Source: a virus (taxonomy: Duplodnaviria > Heunggongvirae > Uroviricota > Caudoviricetes). From it: a DNA stretch of 31,250 bases. This document shows positions 4,234 through 25,298 of the stretch, in pieces. The position numbers were made by a program, and so were the translations under genes. Numbering within the stretch: position 1 is the stretch's first letter; the number at the start of each line of letters is the position of its first letter. Under the pieces are notes generated by a model. That model worked only from the letters and a program-made list of their open reading frames with translations, searched no databases and was not told the DNA's origin. The stretch is taken from IMG/VR virus record IMGVR_UViG_3300045988_100792. One strand, 5' to 3'.

Positions 4234-4624
4234 AGCCTATCCTGATTTGTACTCACTCATTTTCCAACTGACAATTTACATAGCCCAAACGCTATCAAAT
4301 CTGACAGTCTGCTTTGAGCGAAAAGCGGACATTTAGTTGGCCGGCTTAATTAGAATGTAGTGAGGAACTAGGAACTGGGGCATAACCTCGCAACTGCGCA
4401 GCCCACCCCTCTAAGAAAAGGCTCAGTGTTAATTGAACGGCGACGATATGCTTGACGTGCTGAAGACTTTTCAGTCACGCTCTGACAAAATTTTCGATAA
4501 AATTAAATAGTTTCAATGGTATGATAAATAAATACTCTGGAATCGGGGTAAGGCTAGGGTGTCACCACCCCGACTTCCCCGCGGTTAAAACACGCTACCC
4601 TGTATGGTTAAATATTGAGGATAT

Positions 4625-5380
4625 ATGGCAGCAGAAACAGTAGTCACAGATGCAGCAGGTACATTAGATACAGCAATAACAATAATAGGTTTTATTGCCA
4701 CAATAGCCTCATTAGTACTCGCCATTGGGGCTATTTGGCTTTCTTTTGTTTTTTATAAAATGTCGAATGAGGCTTCTAAAGAGACAACTAAAGCAGCAAA
4801 AGACATCCAGGCAAGTGTCGAACGACTGGAAAAAATATTTGACAAGTTATATTCAGATACATTCTCTATGATGAGAGATACGGTAACGGATATGCGTCAG
4901 CACATATGGAAAAAACCCCATGCAGGAAGCTCTGATGAGATTCTCAACAATGAAGAAAAAATAAACAACCTCAAGAACAGCATTAGTCAGGAAATTATTT
5001 GCATCGTTGATGAAAAGCTTAAGTCCAATGGAGATAATGAAACTAAAATCAAAGAGTTAGAGAGTAAGATCAAGAAAGTTCTTGATAGTGGAATACAAAA
5101 AACCATTCGTTCACAAGCAGTACCTACAATCTTAATGCGTCGTAAAGCACTAAGTCTGATAAGGCGATATGAAAAGATTAAAGTGGAAGAACTATTGAGA
5201 AAAATGAACATTCTGTTCTCAGAGGATCATTCTTTTAACGATAATGAGTTCATGGAAGCATTATTTAATCTTCGTGAGAACGGATGGATAACATGGACCG
5301 GCCCCTCCGGAAGGATATCCTTAAACGATTATCTTCTTTACATTGGCGATGGCGAGAAAAATAAAGAGGCCAAGGAATAG
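4625..5380 (+). CDS. Hypothetical membrane-anchored coiled-coil protein (251 aa); cargo gene in the Z/fun-type slot
   Basis: Only + strand gene in a run of minus-strand late genes. GAGG at 4617..4620 just upstream of ATG 4625. Visibly AT-rich versus flanks. One hydrophobic helix TAITIIGFIATIASLVLAIGAIWLSFVFY near the N-terminus, then a K/E-rich heptad-like region and a C-terminal globular segment. No family recognised. Confidence 0.75.
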   Translation: MAAETVVTDAAGTLDTAITIIGFIATIASLVLAIGAIWLSFVFYKMSNEASKETTKAAKDIQASVERLEKIFDKLYSDTFSMMRDTVTDMRQHIWKKPHAGSSDEILNNEEKINNLKNSISQEIICIVDEKLKSNGDNETKIKELESKIKKVLDSGIQKTIRSQAVPTILMRRKALSLIRRYEKIKVEELLRKMNILFSEDHSFNDNEFMEALFNLRENGWITWTGPSGRISLNDYLLYIGDGEKNKEAKE

Positions 5381-17216: not shown

Positions 17217-18989
17217 ATGACCATCACCACAGACACCACTCTTTTGCACGACCCGCGTCGTCAGGCGGCGCTGCTGTACTGGCAGGGGTTTTCCGTGCCG
17301 CAGATTGCCGCCATGTTGCAGATGAAACGCCCGACGGTGCAGAGCTGGAAACAGCGCGACGGCTGGGACAGCGTTGCCCCCATCAGCCGTGTCGAAATGA
17401 GTCTGGAAGCGCGGCTGACCCAGCTCATTATCAAACCGCAGAAAACCGGCGGTGACTTCAAGGAAATTGACCTGCTCGGACGCCAGATTGAACGACTGGC
17501 ACGGGTAAACCGCTACAGCCAGACCGGCAACGAGGCAGACCTTAATCCGAACGTCGCTAACCGCAACAAAGGCGGGCGTCGCAAACCGAAAAAGAATTTT
17601 TTCAGCGACGAGGCTATCGAAAAGCTGGAGCAGATTTTCTTTGAGCAGTCTTTCGAATATCAGTTGCACTGGTATCGCGCCGGGCTTGAGCACCGCATCC
17701 GCGATATCCTGAAATCCCGCCAGATTGGCGCGACGTTTTATTTTTCCCGCGAGGCGCTGCTGCGCGCCCTGAAAACAGGTCATAACCAGATTTTTCTGTC
17801 GGCCAGTAAAACGCAGGCGTATGTGTTCCGCGAATACATCATCGCCTTTGCCCGTCTGGTTGACGTTGACCTGACCGGTGACCCGATTGTCCTGGGCAAT
17901 AACGGCGCAAAACTGATTTTTCTCGGCACCAACTCCAACACCGCGCAGAGCCATAACGGCGACCTGTACGTCGACGAGATTTTCTGGATCCCGAATTTTC
18001 AGGTACTGCGTAAGGTGGCATCAGGTATGGCCTCACAGAGTCACCTGCGCTCGACCTATTTCTCCACCCCGTCCACGCTGGCGCACGACGCCTACCCGTT
18101 CTGGTCGGGTGAACTGTTCAACCGGGGACGCGCCAGCGCCGCCGAACGCGTGGAAATCGACGTCAGTCATAACGCCCTTGCCGGAGGTCTTCTCTGTGCG
18201 GACGGCCAGTGGCGGCAGATTGTCACCATTGAGGATGCCCTGAAAGGTGGCTGCACGCTGTTCGACATTGAGCAGCTTAAACGCGAAAACAGCGCCGACG
18301 ATTTTAAAAACCTGTTCATGTGTGAATTTGTTGACGACAAGGCATCGGTGTTCCCGTTCGAGGAGCTGCAACGCTGCATGGTCGACACGCTGGAAGAATG
18401 GGAAGACTATGCACCCTTTGCCGCCAATCCGTTCGGCTCCCGCCCGGTATGGATTGGTTACGACCCGTCACACCGTGGCGACAGCGCCGGATGCGTGGTA
18501 CTGGCACCGCCGGTGGTGGCCGGAGGCAAATTCAGAATACTTGAGCGTCACCAGTGGAAAGGCATGGACTTTGCCACCCAGGCTGAATCCATCCGAAAAC
18601 TCACCGAAAAATATAACGTCGAATACATCGGTATTGATGCCACCGGCCTCGGTGTCGGCGTGTTCCAGCTCGTGCGCTCGTTCTATCCCGCCGCGCGCGA
18701 TATCCGCTACACACCGGAAATGAAAACCGCAATGGTGCTCAAGGCAAAAGACGTTATCCGTCGTGGCTGTCTGGAATATGACGTCAGCGCCACCGACATC
18801 ACCAGCTCGTTTATGGCTATCCGCAAGACCATGACCAGCAGCGGACGCAGCGCCACCTATGAGGCCAGCCGCAGCGAGGAAGCCAGCCACGCCGACCTCG
18901 CCTGGGCGACCATGCACGCCCTGTTAAATGAGCCACTCACCGCCGGTATCAGCACCCCGCTGACATCCACCATTCTGGAGTTTTACTGA
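17217..18989 (+). CDS. P: Terminase large (ATPase) subunit gpP (590 aa)
   Basis: Start at ATG 17217 (MTITTDTTLLHD...) with GAGG 7 nt upstream gives 590 aa as in P2 P; stop overlaps the Q start (ATGA). Confidence 0.9.
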   Translation: MTITTDTTLLHDPRRQAALLYWQGFSVPQIAAMLQMKRPTVQSWKQRDGWDSVAPISRVEMSLEARLTQLIIKPQKTGGDFKEIDLLGRQIERLARVNRYSQTGNEADLNPNVANRNKGGRRKPKKNFFSDEAIEKLEQIFFEQSFEYQLHWYRAGLEHRIRDILKSRQIGATFYFSREALLRALKTGHNQIFLSASKTQAYVFREYIIAFARLVDVDLTGDPIVLGNNGAKLIFLGTNSNTAQSHNGDLYVDEIFWIPNFQVLRKVASGMASQSHLRSTYFSTPSTLAHDAYPFWSGELFNRGRASAAERVEIDVSHNALAGGLLCADGQWRQIVTIEDALKGGCTLFDIEQLKRENSADDFKNLFMCEFVDDKASVFPFEELQRCMVDTLEEWEDYAPFAANPFGSRPVWIGYDPSHRGDSAGCVVLAPPVVAGGKFRILERHQWKGMDFATQAESIRKLTEKYNVEYIGIDATGLGVGVFQLVRSFYPAARDIRYTPEMKTAMVLKAKDVIRRGCLEYDVSATDITSSFMAIRKTMTSSGRSATYEASRSEEASHADLAWATMHALLNEPLTAGISTPLTSTILEFY

Positions 18990-20023
18990 TGAGCAAGAAA
19001 AAAGGGAAAACACCGCAACCTGCGGCAAAAACAATCACCGCCAGCGCCCCGAAAATGGAGGCATTCACCTTTGGCGAACCGGTGCCGGTACTCGACCGCC
19101 GTGACATTCTGGATTACGTCGAGTGCATCAGTAACGGCATATGGTATGAGCCGCCGGTCAGCTTTACCGGTCTGGCGAAAAGCCTGCGTGCTGCCGTGCA
19201 TCACAGCTCGCCGATTTACGTCAAACGCAATATTCTGGCCTCGACATTTATCCCGCATCCGTGGCTTTCCCAGCAGGATTTCAGCCGCTTTGTGCTGGAT
19301 TTTCTGGTGTTCGGTAATGCGTTTCTGGAAAAGCGTTACAGCACCACCGGTAAGGTCATCAGACTGGAAACCTCACCGGCAAAATATACCCGCCGTGGCG
19401 TGGAGGAGGATGTTTACTGGTGGGTGCCGTCCTTCAACGAGCCGACAGCCTTCACGCCCGGCTCCGTGTTTCACCTGCTGGAGCCGGATATTAATCAGGA
19501 GCTGTACGGCCTGCCGGAATACCTCAGCGCCCTTAACTCTGCCTGGCTGAATGAGTCGGCCACGCTGTTCCGCCGAAAGTATTACGAAAACGGCGCACAT
19601 GCCGGATACATCATGTACGTCACCGATGCCGTGCAGGATCGCAACGATATCGAAATGCTTCGCGAAAACATGGTGAAGTCGAAAGGCCGCAACAACTTTA
19701 AAAACCTGTTTCTCTATGCACCGCAGGGAAAACCAGATGGAATAAAAATTATCCCGCTCAGTGAAGTGGCAACAAAGGACGATTTTTTTAATATCAAAAA
19801 AGCCAGCGCCGCTGACCTGCTGGACGCGCACCGCATCCCCTTTCAGTTGATGGGCGGCAAGCCGGAGAACGTCGGGTCGCTGGGCGATATTGAGAAAGTG
19901 GCAAAGGTCTTTGTCCGCAATGAGCTTATCCCGTTACAGGACAGGATCCGCGAGATAAACGGCTGGCTCGGTCAGGAGGTCATCCGCTTTAAAAACTACT
20001 CACTGGACACTGACAACGGCTGA
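18989..20023 (+). CDS. Q: Portal protein gpQ (344 aa)
   Basis: 344-aa ORF MSKKKGKTPQPAAKTITASAPKMEAFTFGEP...; translationally coupled to P; order and length as P2 Q. Confidence 0.9.
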   Translation: MSKKKGKTPQPAAKTITASAPKMEAFTFGEPVPVLDRRDILDYVECISNGIWYEPPVSFTGLAKSLRAAVHHSSPIYVKRNILASTFIPHPWLSQQDFSRFVLDFLVFGNAFLEKRYSTTGKVIRLETSPAKYTRRGVEEDVYWWVPSFNEPTAFTPGSVFHLLEPDINQELYGLPEYLSALNSAWLNESATLFRRKYYENGAHAGYIMYVTDAVQDRNDIEMLRENMVKSKGRNNFKNLFLYAPQGKPDGIKIIPLSEVATKDDFFNIKKASAADLLDAHRIPFQLMGGKPENVGSLGDIEKVAKVFVRNELIPLQDRIREINGWLGQEVIRFKNYSLDTDNG

Positions 20024-20027
20024 ACAT

Positions 20028-20051
20028 CGCCGCCTGCGGGCGGCTTTTTTA
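20028..20051 (+). terminator. Rho-independent terminator after Q
   Basis: GC stem GCCGCC...GGCGGC followed by TTTTTT (20045..20050), 5 nt after the Q stop. Confidence 0.6.
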
Positions 20052-20193
20052 CACCCCGTCATCACGCCCTCACACGCTCACCACCGCACAAAACACCCCG
20101 CAGACACACCAGCGCCCCCGGCGCACAATCCAAACGCCGTCACGACGCGCTCAGACGCTGAAAAAATAAAATCAGCACCACCGCCAGCGCGCA

Positions 20194-20212
20194 GTGCTTT
20201 CCCCGCCTCGCC
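20194..20212. other. cos: cos cohesive-end sequence (19 nt)
   Basis: gtgctttccccgcctcgcc is the reverse complement of GGCGAGGCGGGGAAAGCAC, which I recall as the P2 19-nt cohesive end; about 170 nt beyond the Q stop, where cos lies in P2. It is uncut and contiguous here. Confidence 0.6.
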
Positions 20213-20337
20213 CGCCCGCTTCATGGGGCGGTTTTAATGCAGTTGCATGAGTCCATTAAAAGCACATCAGTACTGGCAAAATAAAGATGCAGAAATTAAT
20301 CCTTGAAGATGCAAAAAAATGCAACGCAACGCACCTC

Positions 20338-21036
20338 TTACGGTTTCGTCAATACAGACTTAAATTTATCATTAAATGGCTTAATTTGAGGTAATGTTAA
20401 TTTTTTTACAAATGTTTTTGTCGTTGTGTGAACTACGACACTACCTTCTCCAAGAGTATTCCCCTGACATTCTTTTACGAACCCCTCATCAGTTACTGAT
20501 GCGGTAATGCTCTCTGGAATTATAAGCGTCAATATATCACCATAGTCTTCTAAAACATGCGGTAACTTGCCAGAGATAAGCGTCCCGGGGTTTACCAATA
20601 TATTCATTGCTTTATTATTAGAAAATTGCAAAACAACCGATTGAATATTACTCCTTACTTTTCTTTTGTTTGTTATGGTTATTGATATTGCTGTATCTGT
20701 AGTGCTAGGTAAGTACATTGATGGCATTAACACCATGCTATATCGAATAGCAATTTCTTCTGAATTTTCCTTTAGCGAACGGTGTGCCAACAACAATGAT
20801 GTCGCAACAGCAGAAAATGCTCCCACCCCAGAAACCCAAGTACCCAACATGGTCAAAAAAGGTATTGTAATTAATTGGTATTTAGTGTCACCATTCAAAC
20901 CAATACCACTATAACCCACGTAACACCCTATAAAAAAGAATAGACAAGCCGTTATTAAAACAAATAACAAATGCATAGAACTTATACTTTTAAACTTCAG
21001 CAACAAACCTCTTAAAATATATTTACATCTATTCAT
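20338..21036 (-). CDS. Hypothetical 2-TM membrane protein (232 aa); cargo gene in the tin/old-type slot
   Basis: AT-rich ORF; hydrophobic helices MHLLFVLITACLFFFIGCYVGY and LITIPFLTMLGTWVSGVGAFSAVATSLLLA, then a ~145-aa Ser/Thr/Val-rich soluble domain. Start uncertain (weak RBS at both candidate ATGs). No family recognised. Confidence 0.68.
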   Translation of the reverse strand: MNRCKYILRGLLLKFKSISSMHLLFVLITACLFFFIGCYVGYSGIGLNGDTKYQLITIPFLTMLGTWVSGVGAFSAVATSLLLAHRSLKENSEEIAIRYSMVLMPSMYLPSTTDTAISITITNKRKVRSNIQSVVLQFSNNKAMNILVNPGTLISGKLPHVLEDYGDILTLIIPESITASVTDEGFVKECQGNTLGEGSVVVHTTTKTFVKKLTLPQIKPFNDKFKSVLTKP

Positions 21037-21134
21037 TTTCTAATCTCACATTAAAACCAGACACCAATTTTTGCTAGTCACTATTTTTATGATTGCCAGC
21101 ATAAATGCTGGCATCTTTATCATTCTGGCACAGT

Positions 21135-21866
21135 TCACTCACTTATAATTGATACAACCTCACCTGTTTCTACATTGACACGCGCAGCAATCGTCTGTTT
21201 CACCACTCCGCCATAAGCATTAGTTCCGCGAAACGTGGTTTTCACAATGGCATGCGGGTCTTTATTCAAAACCAGATGATATACCGTTGACACATGTTTA
21301 TAAGATGAATCATCGTTCATATTATCTTTAATTAGTTTTTCCAATGGACGATAAGAACCATCCCAACCACTAAAATTACTCTGAAATGTATCAAGATTGA
21401 TTTTATTGTTTAGTGAACTCGGGTCATTTTCATAATCATTAAAGCACCACCCAAGAACATCACCGAGTTTCAACTCATCATCTTTGGTAAATGTATACTC
21501 ACTCATGCAGGCATAAAACGCATCTGACGCGGTGGCTGGAACTTCCTTAAAATCAATGTAACTATTCACAATATCGTGTCGTGTTTTCTTTGACTCGTTC
21601 CGATATTCCTTGAGTGTTTTTTCACCATATTCGAATGTTTTTTGGACTTTGTGTTCTGCAACGGTTGATGTTTCAGTTTTAGCAACTGGCTGGCTTTTTT
21701 CTGTTGGATAGAGTATTGAACCAATTATGCTCAATACAAAACCTCCTCCGAGATAAACCGCACTTGCACGTTTGCGGTTTGGCATTCGCACCAGTGATGG
21801 CTTGATTAACCCGATGAAGAAAGCAACGAAAAAAGCGAGTGATAGAAAAGCGATTATAGTATCCAT
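21135..21866 (-). CDS. Hypothetical 2-TM membrane protein (243 aa); cargo gene in the tin/old-type slot
   Basis: Start taken at ATG 21866 (MDTIIAFLSLAFFVAFFIGLI...) with AAGGA about 7 nt upstream. Second hydrophobic helix LGGGFVLSIIGSILY, then a ~190-aa soluble domain rich in D/N/K/Y. AT-rich. No family recognised. Confidence 0.7.
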   Translation of the reverse strand: MDTIIAFLSLAFFVAFFIGLIKPSLVRMPNRKRASAVYLGGGFVLSIIGSILYPTEKSQPVAKTETSTVAEHKVQKTFEYGEKTLKEYRNESKKTRHDIVNSYIDFKEVPATASDAFYACMSEYTFTKDDELKLGDVLGWCFNDYENDPSSLNNKINLDTFQSNFSGWDGSYRPLEKLIKDNMNDDSSYKHVSTVYHLVLNKDPHAIVKTTFRGTNAYGGVVKQTIAARVNVETGEVVSIISE

Positions 21867-22295
21867 AGCTATCCTTTTTGCATCATCCACATAAAAAATC
21901 AACCTCATGTTAGCAACAGGATGCTTACTTTTGAATATTTGTAAGTTGTTAGCTCTCCAACCTAACTCCTTTCAACCGTCAAAAACCAGCACCAACGTAG
22001 TAAAAATATGTCTGTCAACTAACGTCTCGCTTCGCTCGTTGTTCAACCCCGCCAGCCCTGAAAACAAGTTTCACGACTGGCGGTGTTCTCTATCGTCTGC
22101 GTGGTGGTGGCGCAACTCTGGACTGACCGATATAGTTAAGCCGCCCGTAATTATCCCGTACTATTTCGGCACACCCGACCAGCTCATCGGGCGTCAGATT
22201 TTCGTTGACCATAATCCGCTGTAAACGCTGAACAATAGCCATCAGCTTGATATTTTTAGTTTTATGGTGCGGTATCTCGCCTGGTATTCTGTGCA

Positions 22296-22748
22296 TTATC
22301 CAAGCCACCCGTTTTGCTGTGCACGCTCCATCTGTTCATCTGAATAGTTCCATGCTCCATCCGTGGCGACCATTGCCCCGCCAGACATCCCCGTCTCTGG
22401 TTCATACATAACAGCAAGGCCGAGCTGATGCATAATTTCATGATTAATTCTGAATACCAGGCCACGCTCACTAAGTTCTTTCCAGTTCACAATCTCATAT
22501 GCGCCTGTATTAAGCAGCTCAATACTTAGCAAGACATAGTCTTCCAGCCAGTCTGACAGGTCAGTAACATCTGTTATCCGGGCTTCAACCTTTCGCCCCG
22601 TAAACACACCCTGCCCCCATTCATGCAAAATCAACGTGTCCCCGCGCTCATAATTACGGTCATTTTTCCGAAACTCTGCGCGTTTCTTTCCTTCCAGCAC
22701 AAGGTCAAAATATTTTGCGTGCAGCTTTACCTCGTGAATTTTTGCCAT
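22296..22748 (-). CDS. ASCH-domain protein (about 150 aa) translationally coupled to A
   Basis: ATG overlaps the A stop (ATGA). Contains the ASCH signature GxKxxExR as GKKRAEFR; occupies the position of P2 orf91 but is longer, with a C-terminal extension containing HEIMH. Confidence 0.72.
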   Translation of the reverse strand: MAKIHEVKLHAKYFDLVLEGKKRAEFRKNDRNYERGDTLILHEWGQGVFTGRKVEARITDVTDLSDWLEDYVLLSIELLNTGAYEIVNWKELSERGLVFRINHEIMHQLGLAVMYEPETGMSGGAMVATDGAWNYSDEQMERAQQNGWLG

Positions 22749-25033
22749 CATTTCCACTCCATTACTGTTGAGAATCCCGGCCACTCATCAGCGACCGGAT
22801 ACGTGAATTTTTTCCCGTCATAATTTACGGTCGCGCCACGCGCCTGCGCCTCAAGCTCCCATCGCTGCGGCCTGATACCGTTCTGAGCAAGGTCAACGCG
22901 GATACGGGTAATTTGCATTCTTTCCGACCGGGTCAGTCTGGCCGATGGTGCAATTTCATGTGGTTTTAACGGGCTTCCGTTTCTTTGTTGACGGTTTGGC
23001 GTTCTCAGGTCGTGTTTTAATGCACCCCTGAGCGCCCTCACGACCTCCGGGTCATTCCATTCGATAACACCATCATCAACCAGATTAAGCACTGCTGCGG
23101 CGTGTTCAGAAGGCGTGGGAGCCGGTGACGAAGTATCACCACCGGTGAGCTTTCCACAGTTATTGACAGGACTCCGAGGCGCGGCGATGCCGCTTTTTAA
23201 CGTCAAAGGCTCAACGACCGGCACTTTCGGCACAATGCGCCAGTCCGTCGTTCTGGTGATATGAATATGACGCGCGCCGAGATGCGGCGCGTAAATGCCG
23301 ACCACTCTCTCGACCTCTTCCTCGTACTCGTTAACGTCATCCGACGGGCTACGGGCGACTCTGACAGTCTGACAATCGCGCGGAACATTTGCCCCACCCT
23401 GCGCGCTGATATACAACGCAAAATCACCACTGTCTGCGGCGGCGCGTGCAGCCTCGACGCGCTCGTCAAACTCATCAGCAATGCTGACGCCGCGAGGCAA
23501 TTTGCGTAGTTCACGGTAAGCCCCCATTGTCGGCAGACCAACCGTTTTAAATTGCGGAATGCGCCACGTTGACGCCCATGCGGTAACAGCAGCAGCTGTG
23601 TCTTTCAGCGGCCTACCGGTATCATTATCGAGCTGACCATCCAGTGCATAGCCGTCGATGTTTTTTGAGATGTATTTCGCGATATACCCCGCAGCACCGC
23701 CCCGATTAAGGTGTTTTGCCTGAAAACGGTTTCGCGCGGCTCCTCTTTCGTCGCCATCCTCTTTGAGCGCATAGCGACGCATGATTTCGATAATCTGGTT
23801 ACGCTGGCGCGGATTACAAAAAAGCATCATATGCCAGTGCGGCGTTCCGTCGTGGTGTGGCTCGACGACACGCAAACCGTAGACCTGTAAATCATTATCC
23901 TTGAATGCCGTGCGCATCAGGCTCCAGATACGGCAGAGATAACGCTGCGCATCCTTTGGATTAAATGCCTCATCGTTCCAGCCGTGATTTAGCTGGACGG
24001 TTTTACTTTCGCCTTTTCCAACCTGACGTGTCGGGTGATACTTTGACGGCGCGGTCAGCGTGATAAACATCCCCACATCACCCTCTGCTGCGGCGTAACG
24101 CTCAATACCGGCAATGGTGTTCATCAGCTCCATCCGGCGAATTTCAGGATTAGAAATACTGCCCATCACCTTACTGATAAGGTCGATGCGCTCGCCGGTT
24201 TCCCTGTTTTCGAGATCACACGATTTAAGAAATTCCAGATTTGCCTGGCGGCGTGCACGCACATCACGAATGGCATGTTTACTGGCATAAGGAGAACGGT
24301 CTTTATTGACCTCCCCGACAGCAATCAGTAACGCCTCATGCCAGCGCATACGCTGGCCTTTAAGCTGACTAATCCACCACTCATCGTTAAACAGACGGGC
24401 AATGGCAGAATATGCCTGCCTCGTGGTCATCTGCCCTTTACGGTATTTTTTCCAGTAGAGAGGGGAAATATTGAAAGCTCGTGCAGCGCCAGCAACATGA
24501 CCATACAGGTGAGCCTGTGCCTCATCCGTAAACAGCGATTCTTTCTCGCCATGCGCATCCACCCAGGCATCGCAGAGTTCCTCATACATCATGAAAAGCT
24601 GCGATGAGATACGGGCGGCAAACTTTTTCAGCTCCTTGTCATTCATCCCCGGCAGACGCGCATAATGGTCACGCTCTGCCAGAAACAGCAACGACGCGTC
24701 GGTGTTCATTTCATGGCGCTGATTCACACGCTCAATGCGCGGCCATAAACGACGCTGAAAAGTGGATGTGAGAAAATAAAACCCGTGCACCGGGCTTTTA
24801 TTGCGCCGGATGTAGTCATAGCGTGAAGTAAACAGCGAGCGCAAAAAGTAAGGCAGGCGGTTAATCGTGGATAAAACACCTTGCACCTGACGCATCTCGT
24901 CACGTGTAAGGGGTCTTTCGCGCCCGACGGCCTCGCGTGGCGCGTTCCATGCATAAGCACCGGTAAACGCCTTACCGGTGCCTGCGGCAAATGCTGACGG
25001 AGGGACAAAACGCCCGGAGGCTTTAACGGCCAT
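22748..25033 (-). CDS. A: Replication initiation endonuclease gpA (761 aa, rolling-circle)
   Basis: Start taken at MAVKASGRFVPPSAF... giving 761 aa as in P2 A; last and largest gene of the cox-B-A early operon. Confidence 0.9.
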   Translation of the reverse strand: MAVKASGRFVPPSAFAAGTGKAFTGAYAWNAPREAVGRERPLTRDEMRQVQGVLSTINRLPYFLRSLFTSRYDYIRRNKSPVHGFYFLTSTFQRRLWPRIERVNQRHEMNTDASLLFLAERDHYARLPGMNDKELKKFAARISSQLFMMYEELCDAWVDAHGEKESLFTDEAQAHLYGHVAGAARAFNISPLYWKKYRKGQMTTRQAYSAIARLFNDEWWISQLKGQRMRWHEALLIAVGEVNKDRSPYASKHAIRDVRARRQANLEFLKSCDLENRETGERIDLISKVMGSISNPEIRRMELMNTIAGIERYAAAEGDVGMFITLTAPSKYHPTRQVGKGESKTVQLNHGWNDEAFNPKDAQRYLCRIWSLMRTAFKDNDLQVYGLRVVEPHHDGTPHWHMMLFCNPRQRNQIIEIMRRYALKEDGDERGAARNRFQAKHLNRGGAAGYIAKYISKNIDGYALDGQLDNDTGRPLKDTAAAVTAWASTWRIPQFKTVGLPTMGAYRELRKLPRGVSIADEFDERVEAARAAADSGDFALYISAQGGANVPRDCQTVRVARSPSDDVNEYEEEVERVVGIYAPHLGARHIHITRTTDWRIVPKVPVVEPLTLKSGIAAPRSPVNNCGKLTGGDTSSPAPTPSEHAAAVLNLVDDGVIEWNDPEVVRALRGALKHDLRTPNRQQRNGSPLKPHEIAPSARLTRSERMQITRIRVDLAQNGIRPQRWELEAQARGATVNYDGKKFTYPVADEWPGFSTVMEWK

Positions 25034-25298
25034 ATGAGCCAAAAGCCTCTGAACAACGCTTGCTGAGTTGCTCAACCTGCGCGTTTAAATCAGCAAAAGA
25101 CTTTGCGCTTCCGGTCAGAATATCGTGATGCATCAGGCCGGAAACGAGCTGGCTTAATTTCGGGTAATAACCAACCACCGACAGCCATTCCTGACCGGCG
25201 TTTTTACCGCTTTCCGCTCTCTTTTTCTCGTGGAGAATAAACTGAAAGCTGTCACTGGTAACGACATAACGTTCGCCAATTTCGATACGAATACTCAT
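25023..25298 (-). CDS. Early-operon small protein (P2 orf83-position)
   Basis: 91-aa ORF immediately upstream of A, overlapping its start; identified by position only. Confidence 0.65.
   Translation of the reverse strand: MSIRIEIGERYVVTSDSFQFILHEKKRAESGKNAGQEWLSVVGYYPKLSQLVSGLMHHDILTGSAKSFADLNAQVEQLSKRCSEAFGSYGR

Follow-up and report, generated by a model that had tools for sequence, protein, structure and literature searches.

Separable accessory cargo in a P2-like phage: an Orf97-family gene and a divergent PHROG 16957 gene between gpA and cos

The window, that is, the whole 31,250-nucleotide stretch of Caudoviricetes DNA analysed here, carries two accessory ORFs between gpA and cos, hereafter gene 1 and gene 2 (Table 1). 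An ORF check of the window placed both on the minus strand and bore out the coordinates and shared strand given in the initial annotation, and the assignment to the slot between gpA/ASCH and cos was also correct, judging from the positions of gpA, the ASCH/DUF3850 gene, the cos core, and the portal gene Q. Gene 1 is not the immediate neighbour of the ASCH gene, because the 68-aa ORF and a 67-nt stem-loop, referred to below as the boundary element, intervene. The GC contents of genes 1 and 2 were 0.389 and 0.345, respectively, against 0.521 for the window, in line with the AT-richness described before. The flanking genes Q and A had values of 0.535 and 0.536, and the variable block (20268-22016) one of 0.367. 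The conserved backbone restarts at approximately 20255-20267, and the flank similarity to other P2-like phages spans positions 20000-20267 of the window.

Table 1. Features of the gpA-cos slot and its flanks, in window coordinates
Feature	Position	Strand	Description
Portal gene Q	18989-20023	+	
P2-type cos core	20194-20212	-	GGCGAGGCGGGGAAAGCAC, 19 nt, end of the slot; exact match, 0 expected by chance
Gene 2	20338-21036	-	Divergent PHROG 16957 member, 232 aa
Intergenic hairpin	21094-21113	-	TGCCAGCATTTATGCTGGCA, 8-bp stem, just past the gene 1 stop codon; -15.2 kcal/mol, z = -4.5
Gene 1	21135-21866	-	Orthologue of coliphage 186 orf97, 243 aa
Leader upstream of gene 1	21867-22018	-	AT-rich, GC 0.42
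Boundary element	22019-22085	-	Conserved, 67 nt; 15-bp stem, 5-nt loop, then GGGGTTGAACAACGAGC...CGTTAG; found by sequence comparison
68-aa ORF	22090-22296		Between gene 1 and the ASCH gene
ASCH/DUF3850 gene	22296-22784	-	
gpA	22748-25075	-	

Escherichia phage 9W and Peduovirus P22H4 carry this locus with 100% DNA identity. A 2.4-kb query including the backbone flanks was matched in 2178 of 5426 complete E. coli genomes (~40%), among which gene 1 was present in 92 and the present gene 2 allele in 6. These counts support the earlier description of the genes as non-core, horizontally acquired hotspot cargo, and a comparison of the slot across P2-like phages agreed with it, both genes being sporadic and swappable rather than core. 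The gpA-cos hotspot holds non-essential, swappable genes that exclude phages, including P2 tin and old, and partition systems and toxins are among its non-defence cargo (PMC9122126). Approximately half of P2-like elements lack any complete recognised system (bioRxiv 10.64898/2026.02.27.708500), and the present arrangement corresponds to an unannotated one listed by Rousset et al. (2022) as 'DUF3850/ASCH + hypothetical x3'. Overall, the locus is ordinary hotspot cargo.

Neither protein had been recognised as a member of a known family, a view that did not hold: gene 1 belongs to the Orf97 family (PHROG 3403, E = 1e-145), while gene 2 matched PHROG 16957 (E = 4.5e-14) and PHROG 23429 (E = 1.8e-80). 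The gene 1 product was 77.6% identical to 186 Orf97 (NP_052294, UniProt Q37850) over residues 1-241 (tblastn, E = 1e-117). Its start was placed at 21866, not 21908: in the longer ORF, the PHROG 3403 alignment begins only at residue 15, an AAGGA motif lies 6 nt upstream of 21866, and the homologues are also 243 aa long. Homologues formed at least 159 clusters across Enterobacterales, and the family range additionally covers Vibrio phage VHML and one Helicobacter phage. The RefSeq record of 186 Orf97 carries the note 'expression from plasmid blocks 186 infection', which lends direct support to the superinfection-exclusion role proposed earlier for gene 1; the sole source of this phenotype is the database note, on a plasmid-expressed protein with 78% identity. 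As far as the literature could be searched, no later paper mentioning the phenotype was found, nor was a mechanism of Orf97 described in the literature reached; the one mention found in work on orf97, tum, and 186 exclusion was made in passing and groups orf97 with the antirepressor (PMC5322425). Tying gene 1 to Orf97 revives a phenotype missed by the later literature (as searchable) and by defence databases.

The gene 1 product and 186 Orf97 share full-length homology and a 243-aa architecture with two transmembrane (TM) helices, and their genes are both the last or second-to-last before cos. The settings differ, in that 186 orf97 occupies the distal position in the p95 tum-orf97 operon under LexA control, whereas gene 1 lacks both tum and a LexA box and sits on a P2-type backbone downstream of the ASCH gene, the 68-aa ORF, and the boundary element. 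This P2-type (ASCH) context was common to 21 of the 80 Orf97-family loci, and the tum operon context is therefore not defining for the protein family.

The AT-rich cargo starts directly after the boundary element, the position of which relative to orf97 and gene 2 was compared in 15 loci and in the 80 IMG/VR loci. Its predicted RNA fold reached -27.9 kcal/mol (z = -3.5; z = -4.0 for the copy in phage 186), and an Rfam scan of positions 19800-22800 returned no family, the boundary element included. The last ~40 nt of the leader resemble the 186 tum-orf97 spacer, with the 5' arm of terminator t95a missing. In 186-type phages, orf97 lies within the LexA-repressed tum operon, and its product is therefore synthesised upon induction but not in a quiet lysogen. 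LexA control of this kind was rejected for gene 1, upstream of which no LexA box (CTGT-N8-ACAG, with at most one mismatch) was found. No sigma-70-like site scoring at least 9/12 was present on the coding strand of positions 21867-22100. These findings gave no support to the lysogenic conversion put forward in the initial annotation, in the sense of expression from the prophage. The intergenic hairpin occupies the place that a second copy of the boundary element takes in other phages; lacking a U-tract in the sense orientation, it may represent an RNA-stability element or an incomplete terminator.

Each protein had been described as an N-terminal hydrophobic hairpin followed by a soluble domain, and this layout was recovered with two clear hydrophobic segments in gene 1 and with one clear and one borderline segment in gene 2. 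In gene 1, the segments cover residues 3-21 and 34-52 (Kyte-Doolittle 2.69 and 1.81, respectively) and are joined by a K/R-rich loop with a net charge of +4.6; the N-terminal end is acidic. The predicted topology is N-out/C-out, in the order TM1, basic cytoplasmic loop, TM2, variable linker, and periplasmic domain (residues 78-243); judged by these sequence features, it is likely an inner-membrane protein whose two termini lie outside. In the AlphaFold model, the periplasmic domain comprises a helical module resembling HdeA/HdeB and, after it, a cystatin-like cone. Two cysteines, C120 and C141, were invariant in all 36 sequences of an Orf97-family alignment and lie on adjacent predicted helices, and the modelled module may thus be stabilised by a disulfide between them. 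The acid-stress chaperones HdeA and HdeB were the best structural match and could be superposed on the model. Their likeness to gene 1, and that of the type VI amidase immunity proteins Tai4/Rap1a, is one of fold only (5-16% identity): Pfam HdeA did not match gene 1 at E <= 1, and the family profile had no match among PDB sequences. Unlike all of these proteins, gene 1 is predicted to be membrane-tethered and to carry the additional cystatin-like cone.

By analogy with the phenotype recorded for its homologue, gene 1 would stop infection by 186/P2-type phages, and we infer that it blocks their entry from the periplasmic side. The periplasmic domain may bind or hold an incoming tail or ejection component at the membrane surface, candidate targets being the tape measure, the tip protein, and the wall-degrading activity; capture of such a component would keep the phage DNA out of the cytoplasm, as with T4 Sp/Imm, P22 SieA, and HK97 gp15. 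The recorded phenotype is hereby paired with a concrete structural hypothesis, namely a modelled periplasmic binder that a disulfide would stabilise.

The gene 2 relatives that were tested all mapped to PHROG 16957. This uncharacterised family comprises 321 clusters at 50% identity, and the allele in the window represents its most divergent branch: identity was 16-26% with the majority of members and 50% with the copy in Salmonella phage PHB48, and the protein carries a basic N-terminal extension of 18 residues. The protein consists of a basic N-terminus, TM1 (residues 23-41), a short loop, TM2 (55-84, containing MLGTWVSG), a beta-sandwich (~95-212), and a C-terminal helix. The hydrophobicity of residues 23-41 was clear (2.52), and that of the long segment 55-84 was borderline (~1.5); the latter, which AlphaFold models as a helix, is better conserved in the family than any other part. 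In the family alignment, M63, G65, W67, and S69 were invariant, and an MLGGW-type helix, with the conserved motif MLGGWxSGxATLxAV rich in small residues, precedes the beta-rich domain. Pairwise identity amounted to 68% in TM2 and to 28% in both the sandwich and the predicted periplasmic loop. From the weak charge bias of the N-terminus (+1.8), the loop (-1), and the stretch after TM2 (-0.4), the soluble domain is probably cytoplasmic.

The fold of gene 2 is a non-enzymatic beta-sandwich, to which KirBac3.1 aligned over 164 residues. KirBac-type channels combine two TM helices with a cytoplasmic Ig-like domain, as predicted for gene 2, and this analogy is architectural only, as is the generic sandwich likeness to the luminal domains of TRAP-alpha and TMEM106B. 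A Kir-type two-TM channel was ruled out, since the inter-helix loop of ~13-17 residues contains neither the Kir pore loop nor a selectivity filter. Relatives of gene 2 occur as an accessory gene in many unrelated prophages at typical moron positions, including after an S24 repressor, near the integrase, between lysis and terminase genes, in the head-gene cluster, and beside restriction-modification genes.

Gene 2 therefore appears to be a separate moron encoding a membrane-anchored binder that acts alone. The conserved hairpin would tether the fast-evolving beta-sandwich at the cytoplasmic face of the membrane, where a phage (or host) protein would be recognised by the variable domain, while oligomerisation of the conserved helices would disturb the membrane in the style of an abortive-infection effector; this is the reading we rank as most likely. 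Only slightly less likely is a block that acts from the inner face on an early step of entry. Spelled out in full, gene 2 would block entry instead of acting as an abortive-infection effector, with a conserved hairpin that occupies or masks either the injection channel or a conserved host factor of the inner membrane; the variable parts would set the specificity, and infected cells would survive. Taken jointly, these statements form a possible reading that we hold only tentatively. Most described single-gene prophage exclusion membrane proteins (T4 Imm, P22 SieA, and HK97 gp15) block DNA entry (review PMC11436027), a conserved membrane protein of the host, if contacted by TM2, could account for the conservation of this helix, and the predicted periplasmic loop is as variable as the sandwich. 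On the other hand, the predicted cytoplasmic position of the large variable domain would keep it apart from the incoming tail, and a TM motif of small residues joined to a variable soluble domain fits a conserved effector with a variable sensor.

Searches of PADLOC-DB 2.0.0, which includes P2-hotspot systems described up to 2023, returned no family for either protein at E <= 1, so that the proposed defence role found no match among known defence models; ten distant relatives of gene 2 gave no PADLOC family either. Scans of both proteins against Pfam, NCBIfam, and PADLOC yielded nothing above noise, the weak matches to EpuA, Perilipin, and DUF families being hydrophobic or low-complexity noise. 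With the family profiles, Orf97 had no match among PDB sequences and gene 2 had one, which was rejected as a chance TM match. The lack of a PADLOC match is one of the points that would fit both genes serving something other than phage exclusion, for instance the induction or lysis programme of the phage itself, or the fitness of the host by means of a tethered HdeA-like chaperone that protects the envelope during SOS or acid stress. The top structural match of gene 1, the operon shared by 186-type orf97 and the SOS-controlled antirepressor tum, and the non-defence cargo of the hotspot (PMC9122126) point in the same direction. We nevertheless consider this explanation unlikely, given the block of 186 infection recorded for Orf97, the sporadic and swappable rather than core occurrence of both genes, and the spacer after orf97 in phage 186, which is free of cargo; gene 2 is therefore dispensable for the phage cycle.

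The initial annotation treated the two genes as one module or pair, of the toxin-immunity type for example. The proteins are indeed unrelated to each other, as it had stated (BLASTP E = 1.2; hhalign probability 2.8%), and the genes proved separable, with no obligate co-occurrence in 80 Orf97 loci and 25 gene-2-family loci. A gene 2 relative was located downstream of Orf97 in only 21 of the 80 viral contigs from IMG/VR (59 were without one), and Orf97 was missing from 13 of the 25 contigs with the gene 2 family, as well as from the Enterobacter L015 prophage. Orf97 is unaccompanied in phage 186 and E. coli G47-1, and unrelated cargo follows it in other phages and strains; among these followers, a SIR2_2 protein in Serratia was the only one with a match, the 260-, 224-, and 429-aa proteins of other strains belonging to no Pfam or PADLOC family. 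Genes 1 and 2 are thus not an obligate pair. They share a strand and are separated here by 98 nt without a boundary element, and co-transcription, or even cooperation, is therefore conceivable. A single co-dependent system (a toxin-immunity pair, or a membrane effector served by a sensor in the periplasm) would further accord with the 21 viral contigs and the many Klebsiella 186-like prophages in which a family member follows Orf97, and with the adjacency of Orf97 in all six E. coli genomes carrying the present gene 2 allele. It is improbable, however, in view of the solitary Orf97 copies and unrelated followers, the loci that hold one family without the other, the recombination-boundary element found between the two genes in nearly all co-occurrences, and the predicted placement of the soluble domains on opposite sides of the membrane. 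Finally, although AT-rich DNA gives long ORFs and some records annotate spurious-looking opposite-strand ORFs here, the notion that the genes are chance reading frames in AT-rich spacer DNA is refuted by hundreds of homologues whose protein sequences remain conserved at identities as low as 23-55%, invariant columns such as the cysteine pair, and confident AlphaFold models of both proteins (pLDDT 82 and 77).

On balance, we regard it as reasonably probable that the interval is a stack of two accessory cassettes, each a single gene and independent of the other, in the gpA-cos hotspot of this P2-like phage, gene 1 acting as an Orf97-type entry block and gene 2 being a separate PHROG 16957 moron. 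Through its conserved membrane helix and variable sandwich, PHROG 16957 is defined as a candidate defence family in many unrelated prophages. It is conceivable, though at this stage speculative, that PHROG 16957 represents a new, widespread single-protein membrane defence family with a hypervariable Ig-like cytoplasmic domain as sensor of a phage protein and a conserved small-residue helix that oligomerises into a lethal or entry-blocking assembly in the membrane, that Orf97 is an HdeA-like periplasmic 'holdase' tethered to the inner membrane and catching unfolded tape-measure or ejection proteins of incoming P2/186-type phages, and that the boundary element is a recombination site for cassette shuffling. 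If true, the Orf97 holdase would be a new exclusion mechanism; to our knowledge, none within the P2/186 phage family has been described before. The gpA-cos slot of P2-like prophages is a proven reservoir of anti-phage genes, and both genes are single and short and therefore easy to clone and test. The question is relevant to phage therapy and typing because P2/186-type prophages shape the phage infectivity of E. coli, Klebsiella, and Salmonella strains.

Among known systems, T4 Imm and Sp, P22 SieA, and HK97 gp15 are small phage-encoded inner-membrane proteins that stop the DNA entry of related phages, and they serve as the working model for gene 1. T4 Sp works in the periplasm against the tail-borne lysozyme (review PMC11436027). 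With regard to the features of this class, both genes are non-core, and their TM helices and inner-membrane location are predicted; the folds differ from that of gene 1, which shares no sequence similarity with these proteins (Pfam and PHROG annotation), and the entry block by gene 1 is a proposal. P2 tin and old occupy the same gpA-cos hotspot as genes 1 and 2 and are likewise non-essential and swappable, with no sequence relationship to them according to the PADLOC and Pfam searches. Tin and Old are soluble cytoplasmic proteins, the former a poison of the T-even single-stranded DNA-binding protein and the latter an ATPase-nuclease. Unlike them, genes 1 and 2 are predicted to encode membrane proteins.

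The two AT-rich membrane-protein ORFs placed by the initial annotation in the slot between gpA and cos, here gene 1 and gene 2, were confirmed, with GC contents of 0.389 and 0.345, respectively; the window as a whole has 0.521 and the flanking genes ~0.535. The region 20000–22400 was 100% identical to Escherichia phage 9W (OM475431) and Peduovirus P22H4 (LR595869), and the orientation of the window was the reverse of the standard P2 map. Similarity to other P2-like phages ended at ~22017 and ~20267, delimiting a variable cargo of ~1.75 kb with a GC content of 0.367. The gpA–gpQ slot is a recognised hotspot (PMC9122126; 10.64898/2026.02.27.708500), and the present arrangement is listed in Table S5A of Rousset et al. 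only as ‘DUF3850/ASCH + hypothetical + hypothetical + hypothetical’. Two hydrophobic helices had been described in each protein; both were clear in gene 1, while in gene 2 only one was clear, the other being a long borderline stretch. The proteins were mutually unrelated, as proposed (BLASTP E = 1.2; hhalign probability, 2.8%).

Features of the two cargo slots in the window
Feature	Coordinates	Strand	Description
gpA	22748–25075	-	
ASCH/DUF3850 gene	22296–22784	-	
68-aa ORF	22090–22296	-	MHRIPGEIPHHKTKNIKLMAIVQRLQ...PPPRRR
Boundary element	22019–22085	-	67 nt: 15-bp stem, 5-nt loop, then GGGGTTGAACAACGAGC...CGTTAG
Gene 1 (orf97)	21135–21866	-	243 aa
Alternative hairpin	21094–21113		
Gene 2	20338–21036	-	
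P2-type cos core	20194–20212		
Portal Q	18989–20023	+	terminase beyond
Z/fun-slot cargo gene	4625–5380	+	251 aa; GC ~0.38

The 68-aa ORF was conserved in P2-type backbones just ahead of the boundary element and had no Pfam family; in Salmonella phage PHB48, a copy separated orf97 from the gene 2 homologue. An AT-rich cargo gene was also present in the Z/fun slot, the second hotspot of P2 (from tail sheath FI to tail-fibre assembly G); its product combined a single TM helix at the N-terminus with a C-terminal part of coiled-coil or winged-helix-like character, with no PADLOC match and only sub-threshold Pfam matches.

Neither protein had initially been assigned to a known family, which did not hold for either. 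Gene 1 was 77.6% identical over its whole length to orf97 of coliphage 186 (tblastn against phage genomes), and its start codon at 21866 was concordant with the PHROG profile, with the lengths of the homologues, and with a ribosome-binding site (AAGGA). Further copies were found by tblastn in 186-like phages of Yersinia, Salmonella, Erwinia, and Klebsiella, in a Helicobacter phage, and in Vibrio phage VHML (ORF47, 44% identity). The RefSeq record of 186 puts orf97 at the distal end of the LexA-controlled p95 operon, 3' of the antirepressor gene tum, with the note ‘expression from plasmid blocks 186 infection’; a search of the later literature found no discussion of this phenotype. All copies were labelled ‘hypothetical protein’ except the 186 entry and ‘Orf97’ of P22H4. 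By homology, gene 1 is a member of a family that has a name and an exclusion phenotype on record but has been neglected. In 186-type phages, orf97, together with gene 2 where present, lay within the SOS operon and would therefore be made on induction and not in the quiet lysogen. The window had no tum and no LexA box upstream of gene 1, and no sigma-70-like site matching at least 9/12 positions occurred in the 230 nt upstream; its genes could use their own weak promoter or read-through from the early operon.

Close relatives of gene 2 were confined to E. coli and uncommon there (14 clusters; 6 of 5426 complete genomes). A profile search retrieved 46 clusters in Klebsiella, Salmonella, Citrobacter, Serratia, and Enterobacter, and an exhaustive HMMER search yielded 321 clusters at 50% identity. 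All relatives tested mapped to PHROG 16957, with no Pfam or PADLOC match; gene 2 is a member of this uncharacterised PHROG. The borderline hydrophobic stretch was the best-conserved part of the family: the second helix (consensus MLGGWVSGxATLAAVxVSL) was 68% identical family-wide and the soluble domain 28%, and many distant relatives retained just these two parts. The N-terminus had a charge of +1.8, with five basic residues in the first 16 of the window protein, and this charge bias suggests, with only moderate confidence, an N-in, C-in topology with a cytoplasmic soluble domain. In the predicted structure (pLDDT 77), a beta-sandwich lay between a helical hairpin and a terminal helix. Some RefSeq/PGAP copies (P0008–P0012 among others) begin at an internal GTG (193 aa), so that the first TM helix, conserved in the family, is lost; this start call is probably wrong. 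PHB48 shared the basic N-terminal extension, which was conserved at the protein level. A neighbouring 157-aa protein in another locus (L023, 1089–1562, minus strand) had an N-terminal helix (FWTALSSIGTIGAVLVALFLP) resembling the conserved gene 2 helix and was not detected by the family HMM; from this likeness, the small-residue helix may be a membrane anchor shared by several moron families.

The two genes had been read as one module for lysogenic conversion, but they are not a pair. In phage 186 and E. coli G47-1, orf97 was followed directly by the cos-proximal spacer, and in other E. coli prophages by unrelated proteins of 260, 224, or 429 aa. Among 80 Orf97 contigs from IMG/VR (59 of the 186 type, with tum upstream, and 21 of the P2 type, with ASCH upstream), a gene-2-family member lay 3' of Orf97 in 21, approximately nine had no cargo and a portal gene ~490 nt away, and the remainder carried other cargo. 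Conversely, Orf97 was upstream in 12 of 25 gene-2-family contigs, the other 13 being GC-rich unrelated phages without it. More distant relatives of gene 2 were found in several settings: downstream of an S24 repressor gene, close to an integrase, in the interval from the lysis to the terminase genes, within a cluster of head genes, or adjoining genes for restriction-modification. A P2-like prophage of Enterobacter asburiae had a gene 2 relative without Orf97, preceded by a perfect LexA box (TACTGTATGTGCATACAGTA) and an 86-aa gene (L015, 4640–5669); since this operon, predicted to be SOS-controlled, replaces tum-orf97, its 86-aa protein, of unknown family, may be an unrecognised antirepressor. 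A Serratia marcescens prophage remnant (L013, 5806–8874), a decayed P2-like element, stacked three cassettes: orf97, a gene 2 relative, and a SIR2_2 protein of 1022 aa, for which PADLOC gave weak matches to the SIR2 modules of pAgo-associated proteins.

The boundary element, which was conserved, supported separate cassettes as well, lying between orf97 and gene 2 in most phages with both genes. It was directly 5' of the cargo in the window and 3' of orf97 in phage 186, and cargo always started immediately after ‘CGTTAG’. The middle copy was absent only in the window-type allele (L030, L031, and the window), where a different hairpin took its place; with this exception, the element marked every cassette junction of the gpA–cos hotspot in P2- and 186-type phages. 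Further sites were found in L005 (~4345–4410), and cores in L004 (821–840) and L008 (4927–4946). In the stem of the element, the window and 186 differed by G-U and compensatory changes, and the element had no Rfam match. It has the look of the hotspot's recombination junction, and could be a recombination site or an RNA element. Separately, DNA similarity between orf97 alleles with different downstream cargo ended 10–43 nt before the stop codon (window 21135–21180), and the last few residues varied between lineages; cargo swaps thus appear to recombine inside the orf97 3' end.

Overall, the initial interpretation is partly supported: neither gene is core, neither is a known defence protein, and we class the locus as hotspot-borne phage-exclusion cargo, an already known kind. 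Two independent cassettes combined with exclusion by Orf97 is a reading that we somewhat favour. The potential for two new mechanisms is real but unproven, and it seems rather unlikely that both are new as described.

In an alignment of 36 Orf97 family members (52–79% identity to the query), the N-terminus was acidic and the inter-helix loop had a net charge of +4.6, which under the positive-inside rule predicts both termini outside and a periplasmic C-terminal domain. A variable linker (25% pairwise identity) preceded a conserved domain (57–71%) whose two cysteines were invariant in 36/36 sequences, a pair compatible with a periplasmic disulfide. The AlphaFold model (mean pLDDT 82; >90 across most of residues 80–240) had a helical module (85–163) and then a four-stranded sheet with one helix packed against it (173–242), with no catalytic motif apparent. 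HdeA/HdeB and Tai4/Rap1a, to which the likeness is one of fold only, are all small proteins of the periplasm with other proteins as their binding partners, Rap1a and Tai4 being inhibitors of wall-degrading amidases. Orf97 may be a membrane-tethered periplasmic binder that would intercept some component of the tail or of the ejection machinery of an incoming phage, for which the closest functional analogues would be T4 Sp and Imm, P22 SieA, and HK97 gp15.
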